Positions 1,008 to 29,913 of a DNA stretch of 29,913 nt are shown piece after piece. The notes below the pieces were generated by a model. The model saw only the letters and a list, made by a program, of their open reading frames with translations, did no database searches and was not told the DNA's origin. The DNA comes from a virus (Duplodnaviria > Heunggongvirae > Uroviricota > Caudoviricetes). Both the position numbers and the translations under genes were made by a program. Every line of letters starts with the position of its first letter. Position 1 is the first letter of the stretch. The stretch is from IMG/VR virus record IMGVR_UViG_2724678986_000028; one strand, written 5' to 3'.

Positions 1008-1355
1008 TTACTTATCACATAAATCAAATGCAGCCTTAGTGACATCCCCCAGACTCTTTTTTAACCCTGGGGCGGCATCATTATCTAGCCAAAATGGATT
1101 ATTGTTATCTAACGGTAACGCACCAAATGTTTTACCTTTTATTCGAGCTAAACCTGTAAGCGCATATAACTTATTATCGTCAAAATTCATCACATAAGGA
1201 TTACCATCAAGACACTGTAATTGAACCTCATCAGTATTAAATGGCCATACCCCATTGAAACTCTCACGTTCAATAGTTTTAAAAGGCATTGCGACGGCGG
1301 AAAAAGAAAACATAGATAAAAAAGTAACTAATAGTTGAACCTTTTTTACTTTCAT
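1008..1355 (-). CDS. Small secreted protein, unknown function (cargo)
   Basis: 115 aa with an N-terminal signal-peptide-like segment (MKVKKVQLLVTFLSMFSFSAVA) and two Cys in the mature part. AT-richer than the phage backbone. Only 5 nt from the int start. Family unassigned; a DUF2511/YebY-like fold is a guess only. Confidence 0.6.
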   Translation of the reverse strand: MKVKKVQLLVTFLSMFSFSAVAMPFKTIERESFNGVWPFNTDEVQLQCLDGNPYVMNFDDNKLYALTGLARIKGKTFGALPLDNNNPFWLDNDAAPGLKKSLGDVTKAAFDLCDK

Positions 1356-1384
1356 ATCATTACCTCAATTTAGCTCAAGTAAGA

Positions 1385-2035
1385 TTACAAATTAAAAAAC
1401 ACCCTAGAAATGGCACCGCCTACCAAAACCCCTACGCAGATAAAGAATATTATTTCTTTTGGATAAAGTCGGATTAATTCTGAAGCACGAAGTCGAACTT
1501 CTGGTAAGGCCGAACTCTCTGTGTGACTTGATGCCGATTGTTGCTCTAACCACGACAATGCAGACTGTAACTGAGAACGAGTAAGATCGTTTAAACGTCC
1601 TGTACCGAAATTGATATGGCAATACCGCAGAAGTTTTTGTCGAAGTCCACAGTCTTCACTGTTACGTAGTAATAAACTTACAAGAGTCTTACAGGCATCA
1701 TGATCTTTACATCGCTCAAGCATTGCATGCAGAAAACTCTCCGCTGTTTTATATTGATTTACTGTCATATCATCAATACCAGCTACACCAATCTCCGCAT
1801 GTACTTTTTGCCAAATAATAAACGCTTCAGTATTGCTAGCTTCTGCAATAGCAGCAACCAAGCTATTTAGCTCCTTACGCTGAGCCTTAAGCAAAGGGCG
1901 ATCGTCATCATCATTATTCGAAGGGATTGCGATATTGACGGTATGAGAACCATCATATCGCTCTATCTGAATATTCTTTTCGTGAAAATCACGCCCAGCA
2001 ACGCGATTGTTTGAACCGTTTGAGTTGACGGCCAT
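1385..2035 (-). CDS. Tail-anchored membrane protein, unknown function (cargo)
   Basis: 216 aa with a single C-terminal hydrophobic helix (EIIFFICVGVLVGGAISRVFF). GGGAGG RBS 4 nt before the ATG; start lies 15 nt after the repressor stop. The N-terminus carries a motif also found at the repressor C-terminus. Confidence 0.6.
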   Translation of the reverse strand: MAVNSNGSNNRVAGRDFHEKNIQIERYDGSHTVNIAIPSNNDDDDRPLLKAQRKELNSLVAAIAEASNTEAFIIWQKVHAEIGVAGIDDMTVNQYKTAESFLHAMLERCKDHDACKTLVSLLLRNSEDCGLRQKLLRYCHINFGTGRLNDLTRSQLQSALSWLEQQSASSHTESSALPEVRLRASELIRLYPKEIIFFICVGVLVGGAISRVFFNL

Positions 2036-2050
2036 GTCACCTCCCTACTA

Positions 2051-2455
2051 TCACCTACCCTTAGTTTCGTTATAGTCACGACCAGCGATACGGTTATTAC
2101 CACCAGAAATATTTAACTCACGTCCTGATGGCTGAGTTTCCTTTTCACTGATCGCACCTTTTAAAGCCCCGATCACCGCGTTTTTCACATCTAACGAAGC
2201 TGCTCGAAAGCGAGTAATCAACTCCTGCTCATCATCGTTATAAGTTTCAGGTGAGTGAATTCCCAACACAACATACTGAACATCAAGGCCAAAACGAGAC
2301 AGCGCTGCCAAATACGCAGCATCAGGAAAGCTATCTCCTTTCTCATATCTAAGCTGAGTTAGCTTTTTGACTCCACCAATGTCGCTCATGGCAACTTGAC
2401 TAAGTCCCAATCTTTCCCTTTCCTCACGCAACCGCTGACCAATATCATTTTTCAT
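2051..2455 (-). CDS. Immunity repressor, XRE-type HTH (P2 C / 186 CI position)
   Basis: 134 aa; N-terminal HTH (LGLSQVAMSDIGGVKKLTQLRYEKG). Divergent from the early operon and first gene of the leftward repressor-int operon. Confidence 0.75.
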   Translation of the reverse strand: MKNDIGQRLREERERLGLSQVAMSDIGGVKKLTQLRYEKGDSFPDAAYLAALSRFGLDVQYVVLGIHSPETYNDDEQELITRFRAASLDVKNAVIGALKGAISEKETQPSGRELNISGGNNRIAGRDYNETKGR

Positions 2456-2978: not shown

Positions 2979-3329
2979 ATGAAAAAAAACACTAATAATC
3001 CATACTCCAAATTTCGTAATGGCGTAGAACGCCATGTACACCACGTCGCTACCAGTGCATCACGTAGTAACAGCCGCTATAACCTGAACGAGACGCACGC
3101 AACACCAGATGGGCACGCTGTAAAACAAATCGGCGAACACACCTGGCTGATTGAGAAAGCTGGAATCGTGGTTCACAGATGCCCACACAATCCGTTTACC
3201 GGAAACCGCATTTTTGCATTAAGCAGCGGCGATAATCAGTTCGGGCAGGATTTCACATTGTACGAAGCACTACGCACAGTCGATCGTCTGCTTCGCGGGC
3301 AAAGTTTTATTAAACAGGCTGCTTTATAA
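2979..3329 (+). CDS. Early-operon hypothetical protein
   Basis: 116-aa ORF co-directional in the early operon; no recognisable motif. Confidence 0.5.
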   Translation: MKKNTNNPYSKFRNGVERHVHHVATSASRSNSRYNLNETHATPDGHAVKQIGEHTWLIEKAGIVVHRCPHNPFTGNRIFALSSGDNQFGQDFTLYEALRTVDRLLRGQSFIKQAAL

Positions 3330-7898: not shown

Positions 7899-8858
7899 AT
7901 GAAAATTTGTATCGACGACGGCTCCACCAACATCAAGCTGGCGTGGACTGAGAACGGCGAACGCCGCAACGCCATCAGCCCGAACAGCTTCAAGTCGGAA
8001 TGGTCTGCGCCGTTCGGTGGCACGCAGCCCGCGAACTACATGCTTGATGGCGTGCGCTATGGTTTTGATCCGGTCAGCGATCGCTTTGTCCAGACGACCG
8101 ACACGCAATACCAGTACAGCGATGTGAATATAATTGCCATTCATCACGCGCTGGTCAAATCAGGCATCACACCACAGGAAGTGGATGTGGTTGTCACCCT
8201 GCCACTGAGCGAGTATTTCGATACAAACGCACAGCCGGACATGGCCAACATCAACCGCAAAAAAGCGAACGTCATGCGCCCGGTGGAGTACCAGAACGGC
8301 GAAGCATTCACTATCCGTAACGTACGGGTTATGCCTGAATCCATTCCGGCTGGCTTTAAGGCACTGGCTGACATGAGTCCGTTTGAATCCCTGCTGATTG
8401 TGGATTTGGGCGGAACCACTCTGGATGTGGCAAAGGTTCAGGGGCAACTGGCAGGTATCAGCCAGGTGTTTTGCGATCCACACGTGGGCGTTTCTCTGAT
8501 GGCCGATGCCGTACTGTCGGTGATGGCCACTAACGGTATGCGCACCAGTCACCACATCGCCAATACCATTATCGAACATCGCCATGATGAAGCCTGGCTG
8601 CGCCAGCACATCCACAATGACGCGCATTACGCCAGCCTGATGGCGGTTATTCGTGAAAAGGAAGAAACACTGAAACAACGCGTGATCCGCGCGCTGGCGG
8701 GTTTTTCGGGTTACGGGCGGGTGATGGTTGTCGGTGGAGGGGCGGAGATTGTGGCACCCGCTATCCGCGAAGCCTGCGGAGTTAATGCGACTTTCATCGC
8801 GGACGGGGTGCCACAGTTTGCTCTGGTTAATGGGCTGTACGCAATGGACAAGGAGTAA
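7899..8858 (+). CDS. parM: ParM/StbA-like actin-fold partition ATPase
   Basis: 319 aa. Actin-fold motifs IDDGSTNIKL (phosphate 1), IVDLGGTTLDV (phosphate 2) and VVGGGAE (adenosine). Collinear over its full length with plasmid R1 ParM as recalled. RBS AAGGA upstream. Confidence 0.85.
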   Translation: MKICIDDGSTNIKLAWTENGERRNAISPNSFKSEWSAPFGGTQPANYMLDGVRYGFDPVSDRFVQTTDTQYQYSDVNIIAIHHALVKSGITPQEVDVVVTLPLSEYFDTNAQPDMANINRKKANVMRPVEYQNGEAFTIRNVRVMPESIPAGFKALADMSPFESLLIVDLGGTTLDVAKVQGQLAGISQVFCDPHVGVSLMADAVLSVMATNGMRTSHHIANTIIEHRHDEAWLRQHIHNDAHYASLMAVIREKEETLKQRVIRALAGFSGYGRVMVVGGGAEIVAPAIREACGVNATFIADGVPQFALVNGLYAMDKE

Positions 8859-13116: not shown

Positions 13117-13270
13117 TGCTCCCCCTGAGTAATTACAGGAAGATTACCCGCGCGCGAAACTGTTCTCCTTAACCCCCTGTTCTGGCCGTTTTCTTACAAC
13201 AAAATCCCTTTGTATCAGCCTGTTACGCTTTGCCATCATGACTGAAGAACCAGTCAGAGGGGCAAAAACT

Positions 13271-17944: not shown

Positions 17945-18086
17945 CCAACCCACATGGGGAAACCTCGGAATATGGGGCGACCGCCTTCTGGATGCACTGG
18001 AAACCTGTAACGCGGATAAACGGGCCATTGCTGAACTGGATAAGAGAATAGCCGAACTGACACACCAGACGGGAGTAACACAATGA
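17805..18086 (+). CDS. o-spanin lipoprotein (LysC/Rz1-like), overlapped architecture
   Basis: Starts in the +1 frame inside the i-spanin and extends beyond it; lipobox LLTGC; Pro-rich mature part. An alternative GTG start at 17775 has a GGAGAGG RBS. Confidence 0.6.
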   Translation: MNAPTLCLTLVLLTGCAGTQNAPRPAPSVRLIPQTLTMPVTPPPFPDQPTWGNLGIWGDRLLDALETCNADKRAIAELDKRIAELTHQTGVTQ

Positions 18087-19802
18087 CCAGTAAGAACTTT
18101 GCACTGATTACAGCCATGACACAGGCTGAACTGACTCAAAAGGTGAATGAACATCTTGCGAAAGGGTGGCATCTTCAGGGGGAGACGCGGGTTGCCTACG
18201 AACCCGGCACCCCGTGGTATCTAATGCAGGCAATGGTGGCCGATGGCACTACAGACATCTCACCTGATTCCCCCCAGCACGGCAGCGTGCCGGAGTGGTA
18301 TTACGTGGTGGTACTTGCTGGTCAATCCAATGCCATGTCATATGGTGAGGGAATGCCGCTGCCGGATTCTTACGATGCGCCCCACCCACGCATTAAGCAA
18401 CTGGCCCGTCGCAACACAGTGACTCCCGGTGGTAAAGCATGCGCATTTAACGACATCATTCCGGCAGATCACTGCCTGCATGATGTTCAGGATATGAGCG
18501 CACTGAATCACCCGAATGCAGACCTGAGCAAAGGGCAGTATGGCTGTGTCGGACAGGGCTTGCATATTGCCAAACGCCTGTTGCCTTACATTCCACAGAA
18601 TGCCGGGATTTTACTGGTTCCATGCTGTCGTGGTGGTTCGGCATTCACCCAGGGCGCGGAGGGGACATTCAGCGAGTCCACAGGAGCCAGTCAGGATTCG
18701 GCTCGCTGGGGTGTGGGTAAACCTTTATATCAGGACCTGATTTTGCGCACGAAGGCCGCATTGCAGAAAAACCCAAAAAACATGCTGCTGGCCGTATGCT
18801 GGATGCAGGGCGAATTTGACATGAGCGCCGCTACGTACTCACAGCAACCTCCGCTGTTTGCGGCCATGCTGAAACAGTTTCGTGCGGACATTACCGAGTT
18901 TAACACGCAGTGTCATGGAGGCAGAGCGGCAAGTGTGCCATGGATTTGTGGTGACACGACGTATTACTGGAAAAACACCTACGGCACGCAGTACGACACC
19001 ATTTACGGGGCGTACAAAAACAGGGAGAGCGACAACGTTTTCTTTGTGCCATTCCTGACCGATGGTAGTGGCAACAATACCTCCACCAACGCACCAACGG
19101 AAGATCCGGATGCTGCAAGTGAGGGATATTACGGTTCGGCATCCCGAACGAACAAAAACTGGGTATCATCAAATCGCCAGACGCATTTCAGTTCATGGGC
19201 GCGCNNNNNNNNNNNNNNNNNNNNNNNNNNNNNNNNNNNNNNNNNNNNNNNNNNNNNNNNNNNNNNNNNNNNNNNNNNNNNNNNNNNNNNNNNNNNNNNN
19301 NNNNNNNNNNNNNNNNNNNNNNNNNNNNNNNNNNNNNNNNNNNNNNNNNNNNNNNNNNNNNNNNNNNNNNNNNNNNNNNNNNNNNNNNNNNNNNNNACTG
19401 ACCAACAATCAGTTCGGTCTGGGAATTTATCTGTATACCGATGTAGCGTTACCTGACGTCGTGGCGATGACCGGGACTGGTAACCCGTTCCTGATGTCGT
19501 TCTTCACCCAGACCACAGACGGCAAACTGAATCTGATGCATCACAAGAAAGCAGGAAACACAAAGTTGGGCGAGTTCGGGAATTACAGTAACGACTGGCA
19601 GACGCTGGAGCTGGTGTTCACCGCCGGCAGTGCCACGGTTACTCCGAAACTGAATGGAGTGGCTGGCCCGGCATTCCAGGTCATAAAAGACAGTCTGACA
19701 CTGGGGCTGAATGCACTGACGCTGACGGATATTACCAAAAATGCAACGTATGGCGTTGAGATAGAAAGTCTGGTGCTGGAAATAAATAGTCCTGCAGCGT
19801 AA
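18083..19802 (+). CDS. DUF1737 + SASA/SGNH-type carbohydrate esterase (NanS-p-like), interrupted by an assembly gap
   Basis: ATG 18083 overlaps the o-spanin stop (ATGA). N-terminal MTSKNFALITAMTQAELTQKVNEHLAKGWHLQGE (DUF1737-like) is followed by VVVLAGQSNAMSYGEG (the GQSNM-type serine motif of sialate O-acetylesterase-family hydrolases). The 5' part runs 18083-19204 and the 3' part 19397-19802 in another frame, because the N run has arbitrary length. Confidence 0.6.
19205..19396. other. Assembly gap (192 N)
   Basis: Uninterrupted run of n; the true length and sequence are unknown. Confidence 0.95.
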
Positions 19803-19825
19803 GGAAGAACAGGAGAGCAAAACAG

Positions 19826-20293
19826 ATGCTTAAGACAAACAGCCTCCGGAAGGGCATGATTCATGGGTGTCGCTGGTGTCAGGCCAACCCGGAAAAATTC
19901 ACCATTTTCGTGGAGAGCGGCAACATTGAAACGACCGGAGAAACGCCCTCGTTTGTTTACCGCTATCAGATGGTGATGTTTGTCATGGATTACGCCGGGG
20001 AGCTGGACGACCTCACGCTGCCGCTACTGGCGTGGTTATCCGAAAATCAGCCGCAATTGTTGCTTAATCCGGAGCGTAATCAGGACATCAAATTCTCCGC
20101 CGTTATCAATGACGATGACAGCGCCGATCTCCTGTTTACGCTCCCTCTGCGGGAACGCGTTCGCATCACGCGCAGCAGTCAGGGGGCACCGCAGGCAGAA
20201 CACCTGCAGGAGCCAAAACCCCGTCTGCCATCTTCCGAAGGCGACTGGTCGCATGTATTCCAGGATGTGACGTGGGGTGAAAGCGATGGATAA
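19826..20293 (+). CDS. R: Tail completion protein, P2 gpR family
   Basis: 155 aa; MLK..SLR, IFV..G.I, LPLLAWL.ENQP blocks match gpR as recalled; AGGAG RBS. Confidence 0.8.
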   Translation: MLKTNSLRKGMIHGCRWCQANPEKFTIFVESGNIETTGETPSFVYRYQMVMFVMDYAGELDDLTLPLLAWLSENQPQLLLNPERNQDIKFSAVINDDDSADLLFTLPLRERVRITRSSQGAPQAEHLQEPKPRLPSSEGDWSHVFQDVTWGESDG

Positions 20294-20921
20294 GGCATTC
20301 ACCCGCGTGGATGAAACCTTTGAGGCTATCCGCGACAGCCTGAATCAGCAGGCCATCAATAACATCGCCAGAAAGCTGGCACAGGATTTATGCCGCGCCC
20401 AGCAGGCGCGTATCCGGTCACAGAAAGCGCCGGACGGGACCGCGTGGACACCACGCAGACGCCGCGTAACCCGGATACAGGAGCGCATTCGCTTTATCTG
20501 GAATAACGAAGCACGCACGCTGAAAAACTGGCATCACGACACGGGGAAATACGGGCGAACCATTACCGGGTGGGATGAGGATAAAAACAATATCCGCACG
20601 TTTTACCGGGATGACATCGACCGCTTTCTGGAAATACGCACCCGGCGCATCAACCAGGACAGCACAAAGCGCGTCCCCATGTTCGTAAAACTGCGCACCG
20701 CCCGCTACCTGAAAGCCCGTGCAGATGCTTCCGGTGTGACGGTGGGTTACAGCGGCGTGGCCGCACGTATTGCCCGCGTTCATCAGTTCGGTGAGCGCGA
20801 TCAGGTTGCGCCGGGCATTTTCACCGATTACCCGGTACGTGAGCTGTTGGGCATCAGTCAGGCAGATGAACGCCTGATTTATAACACGGTGCTGGGCCGG
20901 ATTGCGGAGGCTGTACGGTGA
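20286..20921 (+). CDS. S: Tail completion / virion morphogenesis protein, P2 gpS family
   Basis: 211 aa from ATG 20286 (an alternative GTG lies at 20277); overlaps R by 8 nt; sits in the gpS position before V. Confidence 0.7.
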   Translation: MDKAFTRVDETFEAIRDSLNQQAINNIARKLAQDLCRAQQARIRSQKAPDGTAWTPRRRRVTRIQERIRFIWNNEARTLKNWHHDTGKYGRTITGWDEDKNNIRTFYRDDIDRFLEIRTRRINQDSTKRVPMFVKLRTARYLKARADASGVTVGYSGVAARIARVHQFGERDQVAPGIFTDYPVRELLGISQADERLIYNTVLGRIAEAVR

Positions 20922-21499
20922 GCGCAGAACTCATGCGACTGCTGAGCAACATCATCCGCACTGGGATCATCTCTGAAGTTGATGAGAAGTCCTGGTGCGT
21001 GCGCGTTCGCAGCGGCGAACTGGAAACAGGCTGGTTGCGCTGGAACACCACGCGCGCGGGAGCCTTCAATGTGTGGCTGCCGCCATCACCCGGCGAACAG
21101 GTGGTAATTGCCTGCATTGGCGGCAACCCGGAAACCGCCATGATAATTGGCAGCCTGTGGAGTGATGCCAATCCGGCCCCCGGCAAAAGCCTGAAAGAAA
21201 TCGTGGTCAGCGCGCCGGATGGCGCGGTGTTCCGCTACGACGCGGACGCAGGCGCACTGAGCGCCAGCGGCATGAAAACGGCCACCCTGCAGGCATCCGT
21301 CAGTGTGACACTGGACACGCCCGTCGTGGAATGCACAGACCTTCTGAGAACGGCGACGCTTGACGTCACAAAAGGGGGAAAGATGAGCGGCAATATCACG
21401 CACAGCGGCGGCAATTTCACCTCAAACGGCATCACAGTGCATACGCATAAACACGGTGGCGTTAAAGGTGGCAGCGATTCGACAGGAGGCCCGCAGTGA
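20918..21499 (+). CDS. V: Baseplate spike, P2 gpV family
   Basis: GTG 20918 overlaps the S stop; IRTGII, W..RAG, GEQV, HTGG.F.SNG..HTHKH blocks match gpV as recalled. Confidence 0.8.
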   Translation: MSAELMRLLSNIIRTGIISEVDEKSWCVRVRSGELETGWLRWNTTRAGAFNVWLPPSPGEQVVIACIGGNPETAMIIGSLWSDANPAPGKSLKEIVVSAPDGAVFRYDADAGALSASGMKTATLQASVSVTLDTPVVECTDLLRTATLDVTKGGKMSGNITHSGGNFTSNGITVHTHKHGGVKGGSDSTGGPQ

Positions 21500-21846
21500 C
21501 AACCCGCTACACAGGAATGAACCCGGACGGAACGGGAAACCTGAACGATATGGAGCATCTGAAACAGTCAGTCAGGGACATCCTGACCACCCCGCTGGCA
21601 AGCCGGGTTATGCGACGGGAATATGGCAGCCTTGTGCCCGATTTAATTGACGAACCCATGAATAACACCACTCGTCTGCAATGCATGAGTGCTGCCGTGA
21701 TTGCGCTGACACGATGGGAACCCCGCATTGCCCTGGACGCCATCGACGTTGTCTGGAAGGCAGGAGGCCGCGCCGGGGTGACGCTGTCGGGCACTGTCAT
21801 GCAGACCATGCAGAATGTTGAATTAACCATCACGCTGAGGGAGTAA
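21496..21846 (+). CDS. W: Baseplate wedge protein, P2 gpW family
   Basis: GTG start overlapping the V stop; N-terminus MTTRYTGMN vs P2 MTARYLGMN; SRVMRREYGSL block. Confidence 0.8.
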   Translation: MTTRYTGMNPDGTGNLNDMEHLKQSVRDILTTPLASRVMRREYGSLVPDLIDEPMNNTTRLQCMSAAVIALTRWEPRIALDAIDVVWKAGGRAGVTLSGTVMQTMQNVELTITLRE

Positions 21847-21849
21847 ATC

Positions 21850-22746
21850 ATGCCTGCCGTTGACCTTTCCCAGTTACCGGAACCCGCCATCATCGCGGAG
21901 CCTGACTTTGAGGCAATTCTGGCTGACACAAAGGCCATGATGATTGCGTCCTATCCTGCCGAACAGCGTGAAGCCGTCTCCGCCGCGCTGGAGCTGGAAT
22001 CGGAACCCCTGAACGTTATCGCCCAGACAACAGCGTTTCGTGAAATGCTGTTACGCCAGCGGGTCAATGAGGGGGCACGCGCCTGCATGTTAAGCCACAG
22101 CGCCGGGACAGACCTGGACAACCTCGCGGGCAATATGAACACAAAGCGCCTGACCATCACTCCGGCAACGGATACCACCGACGCAGTGATGGAAAGTGAC
22201 ACCTCGCTGAGACTGCGGGCGCAGCGGGCGTACGATGGCCTGAGTGTTGCTGGCCCGTCAGGTGCATACGAGTATTTTGCCCGCAGCGCCAGCGGTCTGG
22301 TGCGTGATGCGCGGGCTATCAGTCCGTCTCCGGCAAATGTGACGGTTTCCATCCTGTCCACTGAAGGCGACGGCACAGCAACGGAGGCGTTGCTTAATAC
22401 CGTTCGCGCCGTTCTGAATGCAGAGGATACCCGCCCGGTGGCCGACCGCCTGACGGTACAGAGCGCCAGAATCGTGACATGGCGGCTGAATGCAAAACTG
22501 TACTTTTACCCCGGCCCGGAATCCGAACCTATTCTGGCGGCGGCTGAATCGTCGTTCAGGAAGTGGCTGGCTGAGCAGGGGCTTATCGGTCAGGACGTGG
22601 CGTTGTCCGCCATTGCTGCCGCACTGCATGTGCACGGTGTGCAACGCGTGGAGATAATCGAACCCACACAGAATATGGCCATCAGCGACATACAGGCGGC
22701 GCGCTGTGAGTCGTTCACCATCAGCGAAGGTGGGCGCAATGAGTAA
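21850..22746 (+). CDS. J: Baseplate protein, P2 gpJ family
   Basis: 298 aa; position and size match gpJ. Confidence 0.85.
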   Translation: MPAVDLSQLPEPAIIAEPDFEAILADTKAMMIASYPAEQREAVSAALELESEPLNVIAQTTAFREMLLRQRVNEGARACMLSHSAGTDLDNLAGNMNTKRLTITPATDTTDAVMESDTSLRLRAQRAYDGLSVAGPSGAYEYFARSASGLVRDARAISPSPANVTVSILSTEGDGTATEALLNTVRAVLNAEDTRPVADRLTVQSARIVTWRLNAKLYFYPGPESEPILAAAESSFRKWLAEQGLIGQDVALSAIAAALHVHGVQRVEIIEPTQNMAISDIQAARCESFTISEGGRNE

Positions 22747-23269
22747 TTCACTGTTACCACCATCAGCCAGCAGTTTCATGCGTTGTGCCGAAGCTGTCGG
22801 AACGCGCATTACAGACATCCCGGTAGACCTCAACACGCTGTGGTCGCCGGACACCTGCCCGGTGCACCTGCTGCCTTATCTCGCCTGGGCATTTTCCGTT
22901 GACCGCTGGGATCGCAACTGGCCGGAAGAGACAAAACGACAGGTGATTCGTGATGCATGGCTGATACACCGACACAAAGGGACCATCAGCGCACTGCGCA
23001 GGGCCATTGAGCCGCTGGGATACCTCATTCGCGTGTCTGAGTGGTGGGAGTTCGGCGGAGAACCGGGAACATTTACCGTTGAAGTCGGCACACTGGACAG
23101 TGGCGTGACGGAGGAAATGTATCTGGAAATGGAGCGGTTGATTGCTGATGCCCGTCCGGTCAGCCGCCACATGACAGGGCTGAATATCATTCAGGAAATT
23201 CCGGGGGATATTTTTGCAGCGGCGGCAACTCATGACGGTGAAGTTATTACCATTTATCCGGACGATTAA
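22739..23269 (+). CDS. I: Baseplate protein, P2 gpI family
   Basis: 176 aa from ATG 22739 (overlaps J by 8 nt); [21 protein letters not shown] and [12 protein letters not shown] blocks match gpI as recalled. Confidence 0.8.
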
Positions 23270-23271
23270 GC

Positions 23272-25404
23272 ATGAGTACCACAACACGAAAATTTAAAAC
23301 CGTTATCACCGATACAGGTGCCAAAAAATTAGCTCAGGCAGCCGCGCCAGATGGTAAGCCTGTCCGCCTGACTCATATGGCCGTGGGCGACGGTGGCGGC
23401 GCGTTGCCCACACCAGACAGTAAGCAGACCCGTCTGGTGCATGAGGTGTGGCGACACACTGTTAATCGCGTCATCCTGGACGCAACACATCAGAACCGCA
23501 TTATTGCGGAGCTGGTTATTCCTCCAGAAACGGGCGGATTCTGGATCCGGGAAATTGGTGTGTTTGATGAGCACGGCGATTTAATCGCGGTGGGCAATAC
23601 TGCCGAAAGTTACAAGCCAGCCGTTGCCGAAGGGTCCGGACGTGCACAAACATTTCGCACCATTCTGACCGTATCCAGCACTGCCACTGTGGCGCTTACC
23701 GTGGATAACACCATGGTGATGGCCACAGTGGATTACGTGGATAACAAACTGAAAGAGCATGAACAGTCACGATGTCACCCGGATGCCTCGCTGACCGCAA
23801 AAGGCTTTGTTCAACTCAGTAGCGCCACTAACAGCGATTCTGAAACGCTGGCTGCAACGCCGAAAGCGGTTAAGGTCGCGTATGATCTTGCTAACGGAAA
23901 ATATACAGCGCAGGATGCCACAACAGCGCGAAAAGGCCTTGTCCAGCTTAGTAGTGCAACCAACAGTACATCTGAAACGCTGGCGGCAACATCAAATGCA
24001 GTAAAAGCTGCCTATGACAATGCTGAAAAACGTCTGCAGAAAGCTAAGAATGGTGAGGATATCTCTGATAAAGACACCTTTACGAAAAATATCGGTGCCT
24101 GCCGTGCATATAGTGCAGAGCTGAATATTGGTGGAGATAGTGAAGCATGGACAACTGCGCAGTTGATTTTTTGGCTAGAGAGTCAGGGGGCATTTAACCA
24201 TCCTTACTGGATGTGCAAAGGCTCATGGGCTTATGCAAATAATAAGGTCATTACAGATACAGGTTGCGGAAGTATTTGTCTTGCAGGTGCTGTTGTGGAA
24301 GTTATTGGCACCCGCGGCGCAATGACCATACGCATTACCACACCGAGTACATCCAGCGGTGAAGGCATCCCTAATGCTCAATTTACTTATATTAATCATG
24401 GTGATGCTTATGCTCCTGGCTGGCGAAGGGACTATAACTCCAGGAATAAGCCAACAGCATCAGAGATCGGGGCGTTACCGTCAGATGGGACAGCAGTATC
24501 GTCAGTTAATCTGGCTTCAAAAGGTCGGCTGACCGCCCTGACAGATAATATGCAGGGGGCCACAGGTCTGGAGTTATACGAGGCGTATAACAACGGATAT
24601 CCAACAACGTATGGAAATATCATTCACCTGAAAGGGATGACAGCCGTTGGCGAAGGCGAATTACTCATCGGCTGGAGTGGTATAAGCGGTGCTCATGCTC
24701 CGGCATTTATTCGTTCACGACGGGATACGACCGACGCAAACTGGTCGCCGTGGGCGCAGCTTTACACCTCGGCTCATCCTCCTGAAGAGTTTTATCCAGT
24801 CGGTGCACCGATTCCGTGGCCATCAGATACCGTTCCGTCTGGTTATGCCCTGATGCAGGGGCAGACTTTTGACAAATCTGCATACCCGAAACTTGCAGTC
24901 GCTTATCCGTCAGGCGTTATTCCTGATATGCGTGGCTGGACGATTAAGGGCAAGCCCGGCAGTGGTCGTGCCGTATTGTCTCAGGAACAGGACGGCATTA
25001 AATCGCACACCCACAGCGCCAGCGCATCCAGTACGGATTTGGGGACGAAAACCACATCGTCGTTTGATTACGGTACTAAAACGACCAGTTCATTTGATTA
25101 CGGCACAAAAACTACGAATAGCGCTGGAAATCATTCACACAATATACCTGTTGGTCACACTGGCGCGGGGAATGGTGTATCAGCCGGTTATAACGCTGCG
25201 TTAGGTACTGGTACCACGTCGAGCGCAGGCGAGCATGCTCACAATGTATATATCGGTGCCCATAACCACACTATCGGCATTGGTGCTCATGCCCATTCTG
25301 TCATTATTGGTCCCCACGGACACACCATCACCGTTAACGCTACGGGTAACGAAGAAAACACCGTAAAAAACATCGCATTTAACTATATTGTGAGGCTTGC
25401 ATAA
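23272..25404 (+). CDS. H: Tail fibre protein, P2 gpH-like N-terminus with a mosaic C-terminal receptor-binding region
   Basis: 710 aa; conserved N-terminal about 150 aa; two phage-fibre repeats ([25 protein letters not shown]); [10 protein letters not shown] tandem repeats; His-rich HxH run ([31 protein letters not shown]). Confidence 0.85.
25042..25122 (+). repeat. Tandem 30-nt (10-aa [10 protein letters not shown]) repeats inside the tail fibre gene
   Basis: Units at 25042-25071 and 25072-25101, with a partial third unit; copies differ at synonymous positions. Confidence 0.6.
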
Positions 25405-25982
25405 TGACATTCAGAATGAGTGAACACTCACGGACCATAAAAATTTATAATCTACTGACCGGAACCAATGAGTTTATTGGTGAAGGTGATGCATACATTC
25501 CACCTCATACAGGTCTGCCTGCAAACAGTACCGATATTGCCCCGCCAGATATTCCGGCTGGCTTCGTGGCCGTTTTCAACAGTGATGAGGCATCGTGGCA
25601 TCTCGTTGAAGACCATCGGGGTAAAACGGTTTATGACGTGGCATCAGGGGACTCGTTATTTATTTCTGAACTCGGTCCATTACCGGAAAATGTTACCTGG
25701 TTGTCGCCGTATGGAGAGTATCAGAAGTGGAACGGCACATCCTGGGTGAAAGATGCAGAAGCAGAAAAACTGTTTCGGATAAGGGAGGCGGAAGAAACAA
25801 AAAACAGCCTGATGCAGGTAGCCAGCGAGCATATTGCGCCACTTCAGGATGCCGTAGATTTGGATATTGCAACGGAGGAAGAGGCATCGTTACTGGCTGC
25901 ATGGAAGACATACCGGGTATTGTTGAATCGTGTTAATACAGCGGTAGCAGCGGATGTTGAGTGGCCAGTCGCCCCACAATAA
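25404..25982 (+). CDS. Tail fibre assembly chaperone (gpG/Tfa family)
   Basis: 192 aa; ATGA overlap with H; C-terminal [22 protein letters not shown]...WP is typical of Tfa-family chaperones. Confidence 0.8.
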
Positions 25983-26018
25983 AGAGAAAAAGCCATCGAT
26001 TGAAATATAGATGGCTTT
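25983..26018 (-). terminator. Intrinsic terminator-like hairpin at the convergent junction, oriented for the minus-strand gene
   Basis: Perfect 9-bp stem AAAGCCATC(25989-25997)/GATGGCTTT(26010-26018) with a 12-nt loop; on the minus strand it is followed by a T-rich tract (plus-strand A-run 25981-25988). Sits between the Tfa stop and the acetyltransferase stop. Confidence 0.5.
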
Positions 26019-26025
26019 ATGTACT

Positions 26026-26598
26026 CTATTTATACAATACAACACCGCTCTTTTTAGTTATATATGTGCAGTTCGATGGTATATCTTTATTTATAAAAGA
26101 CATTGCACCTATTTTTACATTATCCCCAATTTTACGTGATAATCCAATGATGCAACAATTAGCTCCGATATCAACGTTACTACCAATTTTTACTCTTGAA
26201 CCAGGCATGTCACCATCTATCTGTCCAATGGTAGTATTCTGTCGTAACACCAGATTTTCACCAGCATCAACAGCAAAATGAACAACAATTCCAGCATGAT
26301 GGGGAATTGTTAACCCTTTTCCAATATTTGCGCCCAATCCAATTTCACAACCAAATTTGTTAATTATTTTACTGTTTAACTTTTTGGCTGCTTTCTTATG
26401 TAATTTATTACCATTAATATACATTTCGTTAGCCAACCGCCACCAGAAAAGGAAATTCCGGTTACGCTGTTTTTTCTCTCTTAAAAGCCTCCAGATATCC
26501 ATACGTTTCCGCCGAATTACTTCATATTTCCAGAAGTTTTTTAAATTAGTAGAGTCCCCAAATAAAACAAAGTGAATTGCCATTAAGTAAGACAGCAC
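26026..26598 (-). CDS. Hexapeptide-repeat (left-handed beta-helix) acetyltransferase, serine-acetyltransferase-like; candidate polysaccharide O-acetyltransferase (cargo)
   Basis: Start chosen at GTG 26598 (AAGGAG 7 nt upstream); an alternative ATG lies at 26583 and the track start at 26631. Hexapeptide repeats VKIGSNVDIGANCCIIGLSRKIGDNVKIGAMSFI and a SAT-like GLTIPHHAGIVV block. The region is strongly AT-rich compared with the backbone. Confidence 0.7.
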   Translation of the reverse strand: MLSYLMAIHFVLFGDSTNLKNFWKYEVIRRKRMDIWRLLREKKQRNRNFLFWWRLANEMYINGNKLHKKAAKKLNSKIINKFGCEIGLGANIGKGLTIPHHAGIVVHFAVDAGENLVLRQNTTIGQIDGDMPGSRVKIGSNVDIGANCCIIGLSRKIGDNVKIGAMSFINKDIPSNCTYITKKSGVVLYK

Positions 26599-26754
26599 GA
26601 TAATCTCCTTAATTATTATTTCAGACCACACATATTATAAGGTTAAGAGATTATAAAATCCTGTTGTTTGTTATTCAAAAACAATTTTCTGAGAAGGACA
26701 TACAACAGCAAGTCGCCAGTCACCTTCATCAGGAAATTGGCGACATACGTTAAA

Positions 26755-27243
26755 TCAGAGCAGCCCCTTAACTGAGCTGGTCGCGCTATTAAGGGATGAT
26801 GTCACCTTATCTTTGAAGCCGGACAACATATCGCTGAACGATGAGGATTGCAGGCGCTCCCGCAAATCCTCATCACAGCGTTCAAGAGTCAGTGAAAATT
26901 CTATCTTTTTCGCCTTACCGTAGCGATCAAACTCGGAGCGGGTCGTATTCGTTTCGGTCAGGACATACATGCCGTAAATCTGCCCGACGCCATCAATCAG
27001 AGGCCAGGGCCGTCCTGTATACGCCTGCGTGGTCAGCAGAGACAGCGACACTTCGCCACCTGTAATTTCAGGATAAAGCACACCAGAAAGAACGATGCGA
27101 TCATCACCTGCACCGATATACTGCCAGCTTGCTGAACGGTTAACGCGTTCATTTTTCACATGCCGCCAGCTTTTGTTTTGCTGTAACTGCTGATGCGGCA
27201 GCGTGCGCAGCTCAAAAACAAACATGCCATAGATCATCATCAT
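26755..27243 (-). CDS. U: Tail protein, P2 gpU-like
   Basis: Start taken at the third Met (MMMIYGMFVFEL), which has a GAGGAG RBS at correct spacing. Lies immediately downstream of the tape measure gene on the same strand, as T-U in P2. Family call is from recalled resemblance. Confidence 0.55.
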   Translation of the reverse strand: MMMIYGMFVFELRTLPHQQLQQNKSWRHVKNERVNRSASWQYIGAGDDRIVLSGVLYPEITGGEVSLSLLTTQAYTGRPWPLIDGVGQIYGMYVLTETNTTRSEFDRYGKAKKIEFSLTLERCDEDLRERLQSSSFSDMLSGFKDKVTSSLNSATSSVKGLL

Positions 27244-27255
27244 GGCCATGACTCC

Positions 27256-29913
27256 TCAATCTTTATCGTAAAAACTGCCACGCCCGGCACGGGCGCGCCG
27301 TTCCATTTCTGCCCTGACCATTTCACCGACCAGTTTCGCCAGTTCGCGGGGATTCTGCGTAACAACGTTATGCAGATGAACATGAATTTCACCGCCAAAT
27401 CTGGAGACAGCAGGCTCCCGATTACGGGAAGCTGCAGGAACTGATGCCACTGGCGATCGTATGGCCTCCGCCACCGGGCGGGAGCTGGCCGCAACAACAG
27501 GGACCAGCGCCGGAGGCAGCGGAGCCGGGACTACGGGTGTGATATTAATTGCGGGGGCAGGCTTACTGACCTGCGCAATCTTCCGCTCCTGCCACTCCCC
27601 ACGAACAGCAAGTGCGCGGGGCAGGTTCTTAAAGACAATATCGCCAGGGCCAATGCGTTTTTTCGTCTCATCAACCAGCTTACCTGTGTTATCAGCAATT
27701 TTGCTGAGTCTGCGTAGCGTCCCGGTATTGCTGTCTGTGAGCGGTTTGTTGTCTTTGGGTTTATCACCTCCGGTGCCATTGCCATTTTCCACAGGCTTCG
27801 GCGGATTGATTTTCGCCAGGTCCCCCTGAAGTAAGGCAACCTTATCCTGAAGAATGGCCGCACGCTGTGCGTCTTCGATTTTCTTGCGCGCCCTTTCCGC
27901 TTCATCCGGAAGGACGCCAAGTTTTTCAAGTATCCACGCCAGCGTATCCAGTAGCATTTTTGCAGGTGTCAGAACAAGTTGTAACGCACCGCCAAGAACG
28001 TTACCGAATATCTCGCCAGCACTGGTACATTTATCCAGCGTTTCCTTGCTGGACTCCATCGGTGACAGCAGCGATTTAAACCAGTTAAACACCTGGCTGA
28101 TCCCGCTTCCGATTGCGTCAAAAACAGGGCCAAACCGTTCAAAGGTTTCACGCAACGGGTTCAGCCTTTCCATAATCCCGCTGAACACCCCGGCAAAAAA
28201 TGCCCTGATGGGATCCCAGTATTTCCAGATAAGGACGGCAGCTCCGGCAAGCGCAGCCACGATAAGACCAACCGGACTGAACAGCGCCCCGATAGCGCCT
28301 CCCAGTAAAGAAACGGAACCCGTCACCATTCCCCATAGTGCTGGCAGGACCCTGACAGCATTCATTGATCCGGTCAGGAGAGAAAAACCAAGACGCAGTT
28401 TTGCCAGCGGACCAGCAAGCACACCAATAGCCAGCGACAACGAGCCAACCGTTGCAGTCATTGCCAGCAACGCACCGCCTGCTATCAGTAGCTGGCGCGT
28501 CAGTGCCGGATGGGCCTGCGCCAGCGCCGTCACCCTTGATACCACCCGCGTGAGCCACTGCGTGACAGAACGCAGCGGACCGTCAATCAGATCTGCAATG
28601 CGGATGCGCAACCCTTCCCATGCACTGCCGAGTGATTTCAGATCGCCGTCAAGGTTGTTGGCCATAACCTTTGCTGTGCGTTCAGCCTCACCGCGCGCGC
28701 CTTCAAGTTCTTTTCTCAGTTTGGGTAAGGAACCGTCACCCACTGCATCAACGAGCGCCATAAACGATGTGAAAGCCTCTTCTCCGGCAATGTCCTTAAA
28801 GAACGATACCCGGTCAACTTCCCCGTATTTGCGGGTGGCTTTATAAAGGTCGGCCAGCACATCCTCCATCGGGCGCATTTTACCCCCGGCATCCGAGACG
28901 GACACGCCCAGCTCTTTCAGAGCTTCTGCCGCCGCCTTTGGCGGTGATGCCAGACGAGCCAGGCTGGCACGCATTGCCGTCCCGGCATCACTCCCTCTGA
29001 TGCCCATATTCGCCAGCACACCAGCCATCGCTGCGGCCTGCTCCAGCGATATTCCCAGCTTACCCGCCACCGGACCTGCATATTTCATGGTTTCGCCCAG
29101 TGCGCGAAGGTCAGTGTTGGTACGGGTAAACGCTGCGGTGAGTGTGTCACCGACCCGGTCCATCTGGTCAGCAGAAAGGCCGAACTGCGTCAGGATATTT
29201 GAGCCAATATCTGCCGTCTCGCCGAGATCCATACCGCCAGCCGTTGCCATGCTCAGCACTCCGGGAAGCGCAGCCTGAATGGCCTGCGGTGTGAAGCCTG
29301 CCATTGCAAGAAATGCCTGCCCACTGGCGGCATCGCCTGCGGTGAACTGCGTTTCAGAGCCAAGTTTTAACGCCTGCTCACGCAGCGCCTTAAACTGCGG
29401 GCTGTTCTGGTCGATTCGCGTCAGCGCCTGAACGCGGGACATCTCTTTGCCGAACCCGATCGCGGGCTGCAAAAAACGCCCGGCAGCATAGCCGCCCGCC
29501 GCTGCCGCACCAATTGCCAGCGCACCACCTGTTTTCAGTTTTCCCGCGGTTTCCTGCGCGCGCGAATACCACTCACGCGCCCGCGTTACACGCGCAAGCG
29601 CCTGCCGTTCGCGTTCAAGCTGGTTGTTGTACTGTTCGGTGCGTCTGATGGCCTGCTGGATGGTGTTATCGCTGCCTGTCAGGGAAATGCCGTGGCGTTT
29701 CAGCTCTCCGCCAAGCTCCCGCATTTTCTGAATTTCCCGTGTGCGCGATTCATTCAGGCGTTCAAGCCGGGTGCTTAACTGCTGCATCAGCTTTTGTTGT
29801 TTTTCGCTGAGCACTGTACCCGTGCGTTGTAACTGATTAAGGGCGTTAAGCTGGCGTCGTGCTTTCACGATACCCGCATCCGCTTTACTGACAGCGTCGC
29901 GGGCGCGCTCAAA
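27256..29913 (-). CDS. T: Tail tape measure protein (gpT-like), 5' end beyond the window
   Basis: Reading frame is open to the window edge (the track start at 29868 is an internal GTG). Long helical, Ala/Gly-rich protein with hydrophobic central segments typical of tape measure proteins. Confidence 0.75.
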   Translation of the reverse strand, partial: FERARDAVSKADAGIVKARRQLNALNQLQRTGTVLSEKQQKLMQQLSTRLERLNESRTREIQKMRELGGELKRHGISLTGSDNTIQQAIRRTEQYNNQLERERQALARVTRAREWYSRAQETAGKLKTGGALAIGAAAAGGYAAGRFLQPAIGFGKEMSRVQALTRIDQNSPQFKALREQALKLGSETQFTAGDAASGQAFLAMAGFTPQAIQAALPGVLSMATAGGMDLGETADIGSNILTQFGLSADQMDRVGDTLTAAFTRTNTDLRALGETMKYAGPVAGKLGISLEQAAAMAGVLANMGIRGSDAGTAMRASLARLASPPKAAAEALKELGVSVSDAGGKMRPMEDVLADLYKATRKYGEVDRVSFFKDIAGEEAFTSFMALVDAVGDGSLPKLRKELEGARGEAERTAKVMANNLDGDLKSLGSAWEGLRIRIADLIDGPLRSVTQWLTRVVSRVTALAQAHPALTRQLLIAGGALLAMTATVGSLSLAIGVLAGPLAKLRLGFSLLTGSMNAVRVLPALWGMVTGSVSLLGGAIGALFSPVGLIVAALAGAAVLIWKYWDPIRAFFAGVFSGIMERLNPLRETFERFGPVFDAIGSGISQVFNWFKSLLSPMESSKETLDKCTSAGEIFGNVLGGALQLVLTPAKMLLDTLAWILEKLGVLPDEAERARKKIEDAQRAAILQDKVALLQGDLAKINPPKPVENGNGTGGDKPKDNKPLTDSNTGTLRRLSKIADNTGKLVDETKKRIGPGDIVFKNLPRALAVRGEWQERKIAQVSKPAPAINITPVVPAPLPPALVPVVAASSRPVAEAIRSPVASVPAASRNREPAVSRFGGEIHVHLHNVVTQNPRELAKLVGEMVRAEMERRARAGRGSFYDKD

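Follow-up and report, generated by a model that had tools for sequence, protein, structure and literature searches.

The DNA analysed here, a viral record of 29,913 nucleotides that we refer to in its full length as the window, can with high confidence be assigned, as a prophage of E. coli, to the P88-like (Xuanwuvirus-type) branch of the Peduoviridae, in which the FI-U tail block is inverted branch-wide relative to P2, and in which gpD lies divergently beyond FI. Relative to P2, the FI-to-U block alone is inverted. This order is ordinary and already known, in the sense that a large P2-related group, already sequenced, is normally laid out in this way, and in the literature on P88, SEN4, PhiSM and the P2 hotspots we found no explicit description of the inversion. 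A preliminary description of the window had considered either a real inversion of the module, with cargo at its junction, or an assembly artefact; the former is right, and the inversion is fixed in the whole lineage.

In P2 (NC_001895), the genes G-(Z/fun)-FI-FII-E-T-U-D-ogr are indeed seen in this order on one strand, which was the premise of the comparison. In the window, both the Pfam matches and the strands agree with a minus-strand placement of the gpU-like and tape measure genes, which run towards the fibre genes H and G. The features around this junction are the following.

23272..25404, plus strand: tail fibre gene H (Pfam Phage_tail_fib, Phage_fiber_2, Collar).
25404..25982, plus strand: tail fibre assembly gene G/Tfa (Pfam Caudo_TAP, E 1.2e-39; RefSeq annotation in the complete genome L001).
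25989..26018, no strand: hairpin with a 9-bp stem, AAAGCCATC/GATGGCTTT, separating G from the acetyltransferase gene that converges on it.
26026..26598, minus strand: acetyltransferase gene, 190 aa (PHROG 2154; hexapeptide type).
26650..26678, minus strand: sigma-70-like promoter match, TTGAAT-17-TATAAT, 5' of the acetyltransferase gene (consensus scan, 10/12).
26712..26744, minus strand: hairpin followed by a U-rich stretch, directly past the gpU stop codon (fold).
26755..27249, minus strand: gpU, tail protein (Pfam Phage_P2_GpU, PF06995, E 5.5e-39, 133 bits, cut-off 27.5).
27256..29913 (ORF 27256-29868), minus strand: tape measure gene T (Pfam PhageMin_Tail, PF10145, E 3.2e-58, 197 bits, cut-off 33.2).

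G/Tfa is the final gene of the rightward tail operon, and gpU the final gene of the inverted FI-FII-E-E'-T-U operon. The tape measure gene starts about 150 nt past the window end, leaving its first 50 codons outside; residues 51-935 of the corresponding protein of L001, where the gene is annotated as 2808 nt, align to the window at 100%. A gpU homologue adjoining a tape measure gene is what is expected of a tail module of the P2 family (Peduoviridae), and the departure from the P2 operon order lies in U and T being opposite in strand to H-G, and in gpD being divergent from FI in identical prophages. The hairpin at 25989..26018 gives z-scores of -4.5 and -4.9 (both strands folded), with none of 200 shuffles folding equally well, and since it lies between an A-run and a T-run, it is likely to act as a bidirectional intrinsic terminator. 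The hairpin at 26712..26744 may terminate the leftward FI-U operon; we assign this hairpin to the cargo-specific DNA because the homology to P88 begins only at 26749.

One could ask whether the junction near 25983-26750 brings together two contigs of a single prophage in a false orientation to each other. The window does contain an N run (19205-19396, the sole one), as had been pointed out, and a related IMG/VR scaffold, L092, does carry a false gene order made by an N-joined junction. The N run of the window, however, is 6.6 kb away from the junction, inside another gene. Moreover, the segment 25000-29913 is found colinear, full-length and 100% identical in many independent complete E. coli chromosomes, with 496 genomes covering at least 80% of it, and the same order is repeated in 104 loci of many genera as well as in sequenced virion genomes. 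The suspected scaffolding artefact is thereby refuted, and we attach next to no probability to a misjoin. As for L092, where H and U appear on the same strand, we rejected this order as a scaffold join rather than biology, because a single N sits exactly at the junction.

The remainder of the module can be read from L001, whose sequence agrees with that of the window at 99.95-100% throughout the tail region common to both (window 19397-29913). Past the tape measure gene of L001 come four minus-strand genes (E', E, FII, FI), followed by gpD, which is on the plus strand, and by ogr, after which the prophage is flanked by the chromosomal genes tRNA-Leu/Cys/Gly-pgsA-uvrC. The gene order of the P88-like lineage is therefore present in the window as far as T, and in L001 for the rest. 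The expectation that the sheath, tube and D genes would lie past the window end on the minus strand was borne out for the sheath and the tube; gpD is on the plus strand and no longer closes the F operon, beginning 157 bp from FI and being transcribed divergently from it. Within the window, tblastn with the gpD of P2 and of a P88-type phage gave nothing at E≤1e-3, in agreement with the earlier reading, and FI and FII were equally absent when searched with P2 and P88-type queries at the same threshold. Given a window without gpD, and an acetyltransferase gene just downstream of gpU, it could be argued that gpD was lost and replaced by the acetyltransferase in a defective prophage, or that the minus-strand genes are the remnant of an adjacent second P2-like element. 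We find either option very improbable: identical prophages contain an intact 366-aa gpD gene 157 bp past FI, every tail gene is present once, and circular 35-37 kb phage genomes of the same order form plaques, P88 and PhiSM being inducible, plaque-forming phages (PMC5285337, PMC6456863). The acetyltransferase gene does lie between G and U, as initially proposed, but with gpD intact past FI it does not replace it.

A comparison with related prophages, which had been suggested, shows the same order in P88, in PhiSM and in the 104 loci mentioned above. These were found among 160 related loci, of which 38 have the P2 order and the remainder are cut contigs. With the classification restricted to loci complete enough to classify, every locus whose gpU is nearer to that of the window than to that of P2 (52-100% identity) is inverted, and these loci come from over 15 genera of enterobacteria. 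In all four protein trees (FI, D, U and FII), the inverted loci group as an exclusive clade, which takes in the named genera Xuanwuvirus, Reginaelenavirus and Senquatrovirus. The P2 order has the wider host range, and this, together with one of the four trees, all of which were midpoint-rooted, suggests that the P2 order is the ancestral one and the inverted order the derived one, although this is not proven. For genus assignment, the ICTV applies a rule of about 70% nucleotide similarity over the genome; blocks matching P88 at 87-96.5% identity span roughly 21 kb of the 29.9-kb window, a value near this threshold for a window that is itself only part of a genome.

Site-specific inversion of the tail block, either recent or reversible, for instance by a Cin/Pin-type invertase like the one beside the P88 gpU, would be a different explanation of the order. 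It draws on the fact that a DNA invertase is common in the G/U slot of P88-like phages (40 loci), and on the resemblance of the fibre gene in the window to a fixed 'other phase' of the invertible segment of P88: the N-terminal part of H is common to P88, and its middle (24070-24438) matches the alternative fibre segment of P88 by blastn. The substrate of the P88 invertase is, however, the fibre segment and not the tail block, and the prophage has no invertase homologue, L001 not being among the invertase matches. The FI-U block is also without flanking inverted repeats, a search for such traces of inversion having returned only short pairs at chance level, and all classifiable loci of the clade show one orientation despite a divergence of 50-100% between their proteins. 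We therefore judge such a mechanism very improbable, and return to an inversion that is fixed throughout the branch.

The G/U junction is a variable cargo slot, occupied by an invertase in 40 loci and by an acetyltransferase in 12, and it corresponds by position to the Z/fun slot of P2. In the window, the acetyltransferase gene has a GC content of about 38%, compared to 54-60% in the tail genes, and its GTG start is preceded by AAGGAG. Its product matches PHROG 2154 (E 1.4e-87), and judging from its sequence it belongs to the left-handed beta-helix (hexapeptide) acyltransferase superfamily, with matches to the EpsC, WcaB and NeuD models (E 4e-21 to 2e-7) and to serine, maltose and galactoside acetyltransferases in the PDB (E 1e-12 to 1e-5), the Pfam Hexapep match being under its cut-off (23.6 vs 27). 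The assignment to CysE itself fails. The best NCBIfam match, EpsC, reaches 75 bits (cut-off 150) and cysE 62 bits (cut-off 211), both below cut-off, with TIGR01172 at 61.7 bits (cut-off 210.65) and NF008349 at 36.8 (cut-off 397). The match to the serine acetyltransferases of the PDB at E 1e-12 covers their C-terminal domain only, residues 54-180 of 190 aligning to about 118-262 of the solved enzymes, and the N-terminal part is too short to hold the helical SATase domain of CysE (about 120-140 aa). The cargo product is thus best described as a predicted short left-handed beta-helix O-acetyltransferase, CysE/WcaB/EpsC-like. Since a comparison with PADLOC gave no match, we make no claim of a defence function.

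With its low GC, its own promoter-like site (the match at 26650..26678 being a putative promoter, by consensus only) and hairpins on either side, the acetyltransferase gene may be a moron. It has moved jointly with the fibre tip and the tfa gene. The tip of H is lambda Stf-like, with lambda stf/tfa matching at 89%, and both punavirus JL22 and phage Ro157c2YLVW have the same trio of fibre tip, tfa and acetyltransferase, at 94-96% identity.

At the other end of the inverted block, the 157-bp spacer between FI and gpD is predicted to constitute a bidirectional Ogr-dependent late promoter, pF/pD. Ogr/Delta-dependent late promoters of P2 are defined by a TGT-N12-ACA dyad with its centre some 55 bp upstream of the start of transcription. 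A strict search of L001 for this pattern produced no match in the FI-D spacer, and the site, TCT-N12-ACA, one mismatch from the published form, was recognised via comparison with the P-O spacer, GTTCT-N12-ACAAC being central in both. The spacer contains one such central Ogr-type activator site, of the form T[G/C]T-N12-ACAA, whose half-sites are conserved and separated by a variable spacer; diverged members have the canonical TGT-N12-ACA. About 47 bp to either side of the central site, -10-like elements are found on opposite strands, and an anchored profile over 21 diverse spacers displays a conserved A..AT at -45 to -49 and A...T at +44 to +48, a geometry in agreement with the P2 annotation (site 3057-3087, transcription starts 3016 and 3127). 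Given the one mismatch, and with the loose pattern showing no genome-wide enrichment (3 matches vs 7.4 expected), the case for a promoter rests on position and conservation. A third exact GTTCT-N12-ACAAC, inside the tape measure gene (27978-27999), was rejected as a promoter, being kept in only 18 of 50 close relatives.

The pP/pO pair of P2 has one activator site midway in a spacer of about 155-175 bp, with starts annotated about 55 bp to each side. The FI-D spacer is like it in length class, in its central site and in the symmetric -10-like elements, and unlike it in that the pair is predicted only and in having the half-site TCT instead of TGT. As the geometry is that of the shared pP/pO site, we infer that a single activator site would drive both pF and a new pD.

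Taken together, these observations give an arrangement in which the late genes V...H-G are read rightward, U-T-E'-E-FII-FI leftward and convergent with G, and gpD and ogr rightward. The inverted block comprises the five genes FI-FII-E/E'-T-U in the entire P88-like branch, with breakpoints at the G/FI cargo slot (the Z/fun position in P2) and at the U/D junction, and the former G/FI slot is now the convergent G/U junction with its variable cargo. We are evenly divided on the further proposal that the inversion put the old pF upstream region beside gpD, that the single dyad-symmetric Ogr site became a second bidirectional late promoter (pF/pD, pP/pO-like), and that the G/FI hotspot became a convergent, terminator-bounded slot through which receptor-binding cassettes, along with the cargo linked to them, are exchanged with P1-like and other phages, one instance of such cargo being the acetyltransferase with fibre tip and tfa. 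If true, the pF/pD reading would account for the viability and the branch-wide fixation of an inversion with exactly these breakpoints.

For annotation, the main lesson is one of caution: P2 synteny is not universal inside the P2 family. Because FI-U is inverted and gpD separate branch-wide, a departure from the P2 order in such prophages should not be read as misassembly or gene loss, and the branch, with its three or more named genera, extends to hundreds of E. coli genomes, among them O157, O26, O103 and O111 strains. Of minor biological interest are the predicted bidirectional Ogr-dependent pF/pD promoter, and the fibre-tip/tfa/acetyltransferase cassette common to P2-like prophages and P1-like phage-plasmids.

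Among the named phages, P88 (Xuanwuvirus P88, NC_026014) and Citrobacter phage PhiSM have V-W-J-I-H-G rightward, U-T-E'-E-FII-FI leftward, and gpD and ogr rightward, and share blocks including U-T with the window at 96-98% nucleotide identity (97.9% for the U-T region of PhiSM; the gpU of P88 is 98% identical). In P88, the G/U slot is filled by an invertible alternative fibre/tfa cassette and a Cin-type DNA invertase, whereas in the window a lambda Stf-like fibre tip, which is fixed, is found together with tfa and the acetyltransferase gene. The window further differs from P88 in its immunity region and in an insertion behind the lysis genes, a gene for a NanS-p-like esterase. An FI-U block inverted in the same way, with gpD divergent, is seen in Salmonella phage SEN4 (Senquatrovirus) and in Klebsiella phage 3LV2017 (Reginaelenavirus), but their gpU is just 53-62% identical, and their G/U slots carry a macro-domain gene within the fibre operon (SEN4) and an extra fibre gene (3LV2017). 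RE-2010, like P2, keeps the canonical order. P2 itself (Peduovirus P2) has the same late gene set (gpJ 55% and gpI 61% identical; gpU 46% over residues 1-127 by tblastn, 40% over the full-length alignment), a cargo slot after G, and late transcription dependent on Ogr-type sites; in P2, however, FI-FII-E-T-U-D form one rightward operon from pF in which U and D overlap, whereas the lineage of the window has FI-U in inverted orientation, and gpD by itself on the far side of FI, facing away from it. The Z/fun slot of P2, reported by Rousset et al. (2022) to be an anti-phage hotspot, is likewise a variable, low-GC cargo position directly after the fibre assembly gene G, the slot described here differing in being bounded by gpU rather than FI, and in holding cargo without a PADLOC match.

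The tail genes at the right end of the window, and the signals between them, are these:

23272-25404, plus strand: H
25404-25982, plus strand: G/Tfa
25989-26018: hairpin with a 9-bp stem between an A-run and a T-run, common to the acetyltransferase gene and the end of G
26026-26598, minus strand: hexapeptide acetyltransferase gene, 190 aa
26026, minus strand: acetyltransferase stop codon
26598, minus strand: GTG start of the acetyltransferase gene, preceded by AAGGAG
26678-26650, minus strand: sigma-70-like match TTGAAT-17-TATAAT
26744-26712, minus strand: hairpin with a U-rich tail
26755, minus strand: gpU stop codon
26755-27249, minus strand: gpU homologue (Pfam Phage_P2_GpU, E 5.5e-39)
27256 to window end, minus strand: tape measure gene, T (PhageMin_Tail, E 3.2e-58)

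The ORFs and Pfam matches bear out the preliminary description, which had placed U and the tape measure gene on the minus strand, convergent with H and G. The start given for T in the ORF list, 29868, is internal to the gene: the window contains residues 51-935 of the annotated protein, and the first 50 codons fall past the window end. The claim that the window holds no gpD also stands, as tblastn with gpD, FI and FII queries from P2 and from a prophage of the type of P88, the closest named phage, gave no match within it.

The arrangement had also been suspected of being a scaffolding or misjoin artefact. The sole N run of the window (19205-19396) is 6.6 kb from the G/U junction, and the stretch 25000-29913, which runs from the end of H through G and the acetyltransferase gene into U and T, occurs at full length and 100% identity in many complete E. 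coli chromosomes, among them those of commensals and of O26, O103 and O111 strains. In 496 complete genomes one colinear match accounts for at least 80% of this stretch, whose U-T part shares 96-98% identity with the sequenced phages P88, PhiSM (a Citrobacter phage with the same order), 503458, 520873 and P884B11. For the G/U junction, the artefact hypothesis is refuted by these matches. Both P88 and PhiSM form plaques and are inducible or spontaneously released (PMC5285337, PMC6456863), and the inverted arrangement therefore allows virions to be assembled.

We followed the order beyond the window in the E. coli SCU-105 locus (L001), the complete-genome context of a near-identical prophage, which has 99.95% identity to the shared tail region (window 19397-29913). 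There, T, E', E, FII and FI continue on the minus strand; then come a spacer of 157 bp, gpD in plus orientation, a cargo gene with a YecA/SEC-C motif, ogr and hok, and the chromosomal flank tRNA-Leu/Cys/Gly-pgsA-uvrC; P88 has the same gene order. The expectation that the sheath, tube and D genes would lie past the window end on the minus strand thus holds for sheath and tube, but not for gpD. In P2 (NC_001895) the order is H, G, Z/fun, FI, FII, E/E', T, U, D, ogr, on one strand except for Z/fun; compared with this, the FI-to-U block alone is inverted here, while the orientation of gpD and ogr is unchanged. The breakpoints are the G/FI cargo slot and the exact U/D junction, the point at which the U and D genes overlap in P2. 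The acetyltransferase, described as lying downstream of U where D was expected, does sit between G and U, but gpD is present in L001, beyond FI. The gap between gpD and ogr is another cargo slot of the P88-like lineage; in L001 (20989-22128) it encodes a 379-aa SEC-C-motif protein, named YecA family, whose weak PADLOC matches to E2/E1-E2 models are confined to a short N-terminal motif.

The spread of the inverted order was assessed in 160 loci with gpU relatives, 80 from bacterial genomes (one genome per species) and 80 from IMG/VR, in each of which J, I, H, G, FI, FII, T, U, D and ogr were placed by tblastn. The inverted order was found in 104 of the 160 and the P2 order in 38, the remaining loci being degraded elements or contigs cut too short, and the type of order follows lineage. 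Wherever gpU resembles the window's more than P2's (52-100% identity), all loci complete enough to classify are inverted; wherever it resembles P2's more, including in Pseudomonas, Stutzerimonas and Herbaspirillum, all have the P2 order. Inverted loci come from Escherichia, Salmonella, Serratia, Enterobacter, Kosakonia, Pantoea, Mixta, Izhakiella, Symbiopectobacterium, Edwardsiella, Providencia, Morganella, Photorhabdus, Xenorhabdus, Pectobacterium, Citrobacter, Hafnia and other genera; neighbour-joining trees, one each for FI, D, U and FII, place them in an exclusive clade. Three genera of named phages share the order, Xuanwuvirus (P88), Reginaelenavirus (Klebsiella 3LV2017) and Senquatrovirus (Salmonella SEN4), whereas Peduovirus P2 and Felsduovirus RE-2010 are canonical. 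A search for inverted repeats flanking the FI-U block found none. The 104 loci, the exclusive clade and the named phages bear out a genuine module inversion with cargo at the junction, one that is old and fixed and marks a branch of the family, and is not peculiar to this one prophage.

One apparent exception, L092 (IMGVR_UViG_2690316161_000021), seemed to carry J-I-H and then T (aa 244-935) and U on one strand. It was rejected, since a single N exactly at the odd junction (position 7913) indicates a scaffold join in the public contig and no real alternative arrangement. Separately, a 226-kb contig labelled Vagococcus sp. WN89Y (L005, NZ_JBQPOM010000071.1), and thus assigned to a Gram-positive genus, bears a P88-like prophage whose tail proteins share 96-98% identity with the E. 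coli ones; the assembly is likely contaminated or mislabelled.

The G/U junction is the positional counterpart of the P2 Z/fun slot, and its contents vary: a Cin-type invertase occupies it in 40 fetched loci (in P88 with an alternative fibre/tfa cassette) and the acetyltransferase in 12. With a GC content of about 0.38, against 0.54-0.60 in the tail genes, and the signals listed, the acetyltransferase locus is, as read from its sequence, built like an autonomous cargo gene (moron). The product is a short left-handed beta-helix protein of PHROG 2154, closest to the EpsC, CysE and WcaB models; it scores far under every curated cut-off, has no PADLOC match and does not have the extended N-terminal domain that true serine acetyltransferases carry. 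Its RefSeq label, 'serine O-acetyltransferase', is not to be read literally, and one could guess at a putative role in surface-sugar O-acetylation. Of 5426 complete E. coli genomes, 530 carry the gene, O157:H7 EDL933 and O104:H4 HUSEC2011 among them, and 66 copies are on plasmids of about 95-102 kb (e.g. NZ_CP038378.1 19024-19546). P1-like phage-plasmids carry the same gene. In the punavirus JL22 it lies within the tail-fibre/cin invertase region, adjoining a fibre tip and tfa that match those of the window (94% identity over 1.6 kb), and fibre tip, tfa and acetyltransferase therefore travel together, as a single cassette, between unrelated types of phage. The position of the gene in JL22 (L167 6027-6503), between two alternative fibre/tfa sets and next to cin, means that it might be turned round if that segment inverts.

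The F operon of P2 ends with gpD; separated from that operon here, gpD would need its own promoter. The FI-D spacer (L001 19332-19488) has GTTCT-N12-ACAAC at its centre (19409-19430), and the same half-sites are central in the P-O spacer of the window (13179-13200). Among 89 distinct FI-D spacers the half-sites are conserved and the 12-nt spacer is variable. The element in more diverged genera is the canonical TGT-N12-ACA, the form described for the Ogr/Delta activator site in the P2/P4 literature; in this phage the site has TCT in place of TGT. In an ungapped alignment of 21 diverse FI-D spacers anchored on the central site, positions -49, -48 and -45, and +44 and +48, are also conserved and match, on opposite strands, A2, A5, T6 and A2, T6 of -10 hexamers, from which transcription starts are predicted about 55 bp either side of the site. 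The geometry is like that annotated for the divergent late promoters pP/pO of P2 (shared site 3057-3087, starts 3016 and 3127), and we therefore propose one central Ogr site for a putative divergent promoter pair, pF and pD. Such a site would drive pF leftward (FI to U) and pD rightward.

The P-O spacer itself (window 13117-13270) mirrors the P2 pP/pO layout, with TCT-N12-ACAA at 13181-13199 and -10-like hexamers at 13141-13146 (bottom strand TAATCT) and 13234-13239 (CATCAT). Neither R nor V has a comparable site upstream, and in P88 S overlaps V, so that O through G may form one long operon in this lineage. A loose form of the site pattern was not enriched across the window as a whole. A third exact GTTCT-N12-ACAAC, where about 0.05 matches are expected by chance, lies inside the tape measure gene (window 27978-27999, minus strand); it is probably a coincidence and not a promoter site, because it persists in only 18 of 50 close relatives and codes for VLGGALQ.

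Further cargo lies elsewhere in the prophage. Between the lysis genes and R, a low-GC gene (window 18083-19826; 625 aa in L001) encodes a NanS-p-like sialate O-acetylesterase with DUF1737, SASA and DUF6645; it is interrupted by the N run, whose 192 N replace 350 bp of the complete genome and thus do not give the true gap length. The prophage cargo therefore includes both an O-acetylesterase and an O-acetyltransferase. Within H, 24070-24438 is a 90% match, in opposite record orientation, to the alternative (inverted) P88 fibre segment (gp42 and upstream DNA); H looks like that invertible segment of P88 fixed in its 'other phase' and fused to a lambda Stf-like tip, and this prophage has no invertase gene. 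As in P88, the replication gene is followed by an actin-like segregation gene of the ParM type (window 7899-8858; StbA_N and ParM C-terminal domain, E 1e-82), a hint that the element is at some stage maintained like a plasmid. Three low-GC genes on the minus strand (window 1008-2455) separate the integrase from the early operon and encode a DUF2511 protein, a 216-aa protein without a Pfam match and an HTH protein of 134 aa. The immunity region of P88 is different, and the prophage is thus probably heteroimmune to P88.

Explicit discussion of the inversion was not found in the searched literature, and a recent paper describes P2-like phages as extremely conserved in core-gene organisation (PMC13586616). 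The inverted arrangement is plainly on record in public annotations. The earlier observation was thus correct, of a layout already known and typical of its lineage, and only the predicted bidirectional pF/pD promoter and the fibre-tip/tfa/acetyltransferase cassette are modestly new. The tail genes are ordinary P2-family members, and their order is that of the P88-like phages, which have been in GenBank/RefSeq for years and are placed in named genera.
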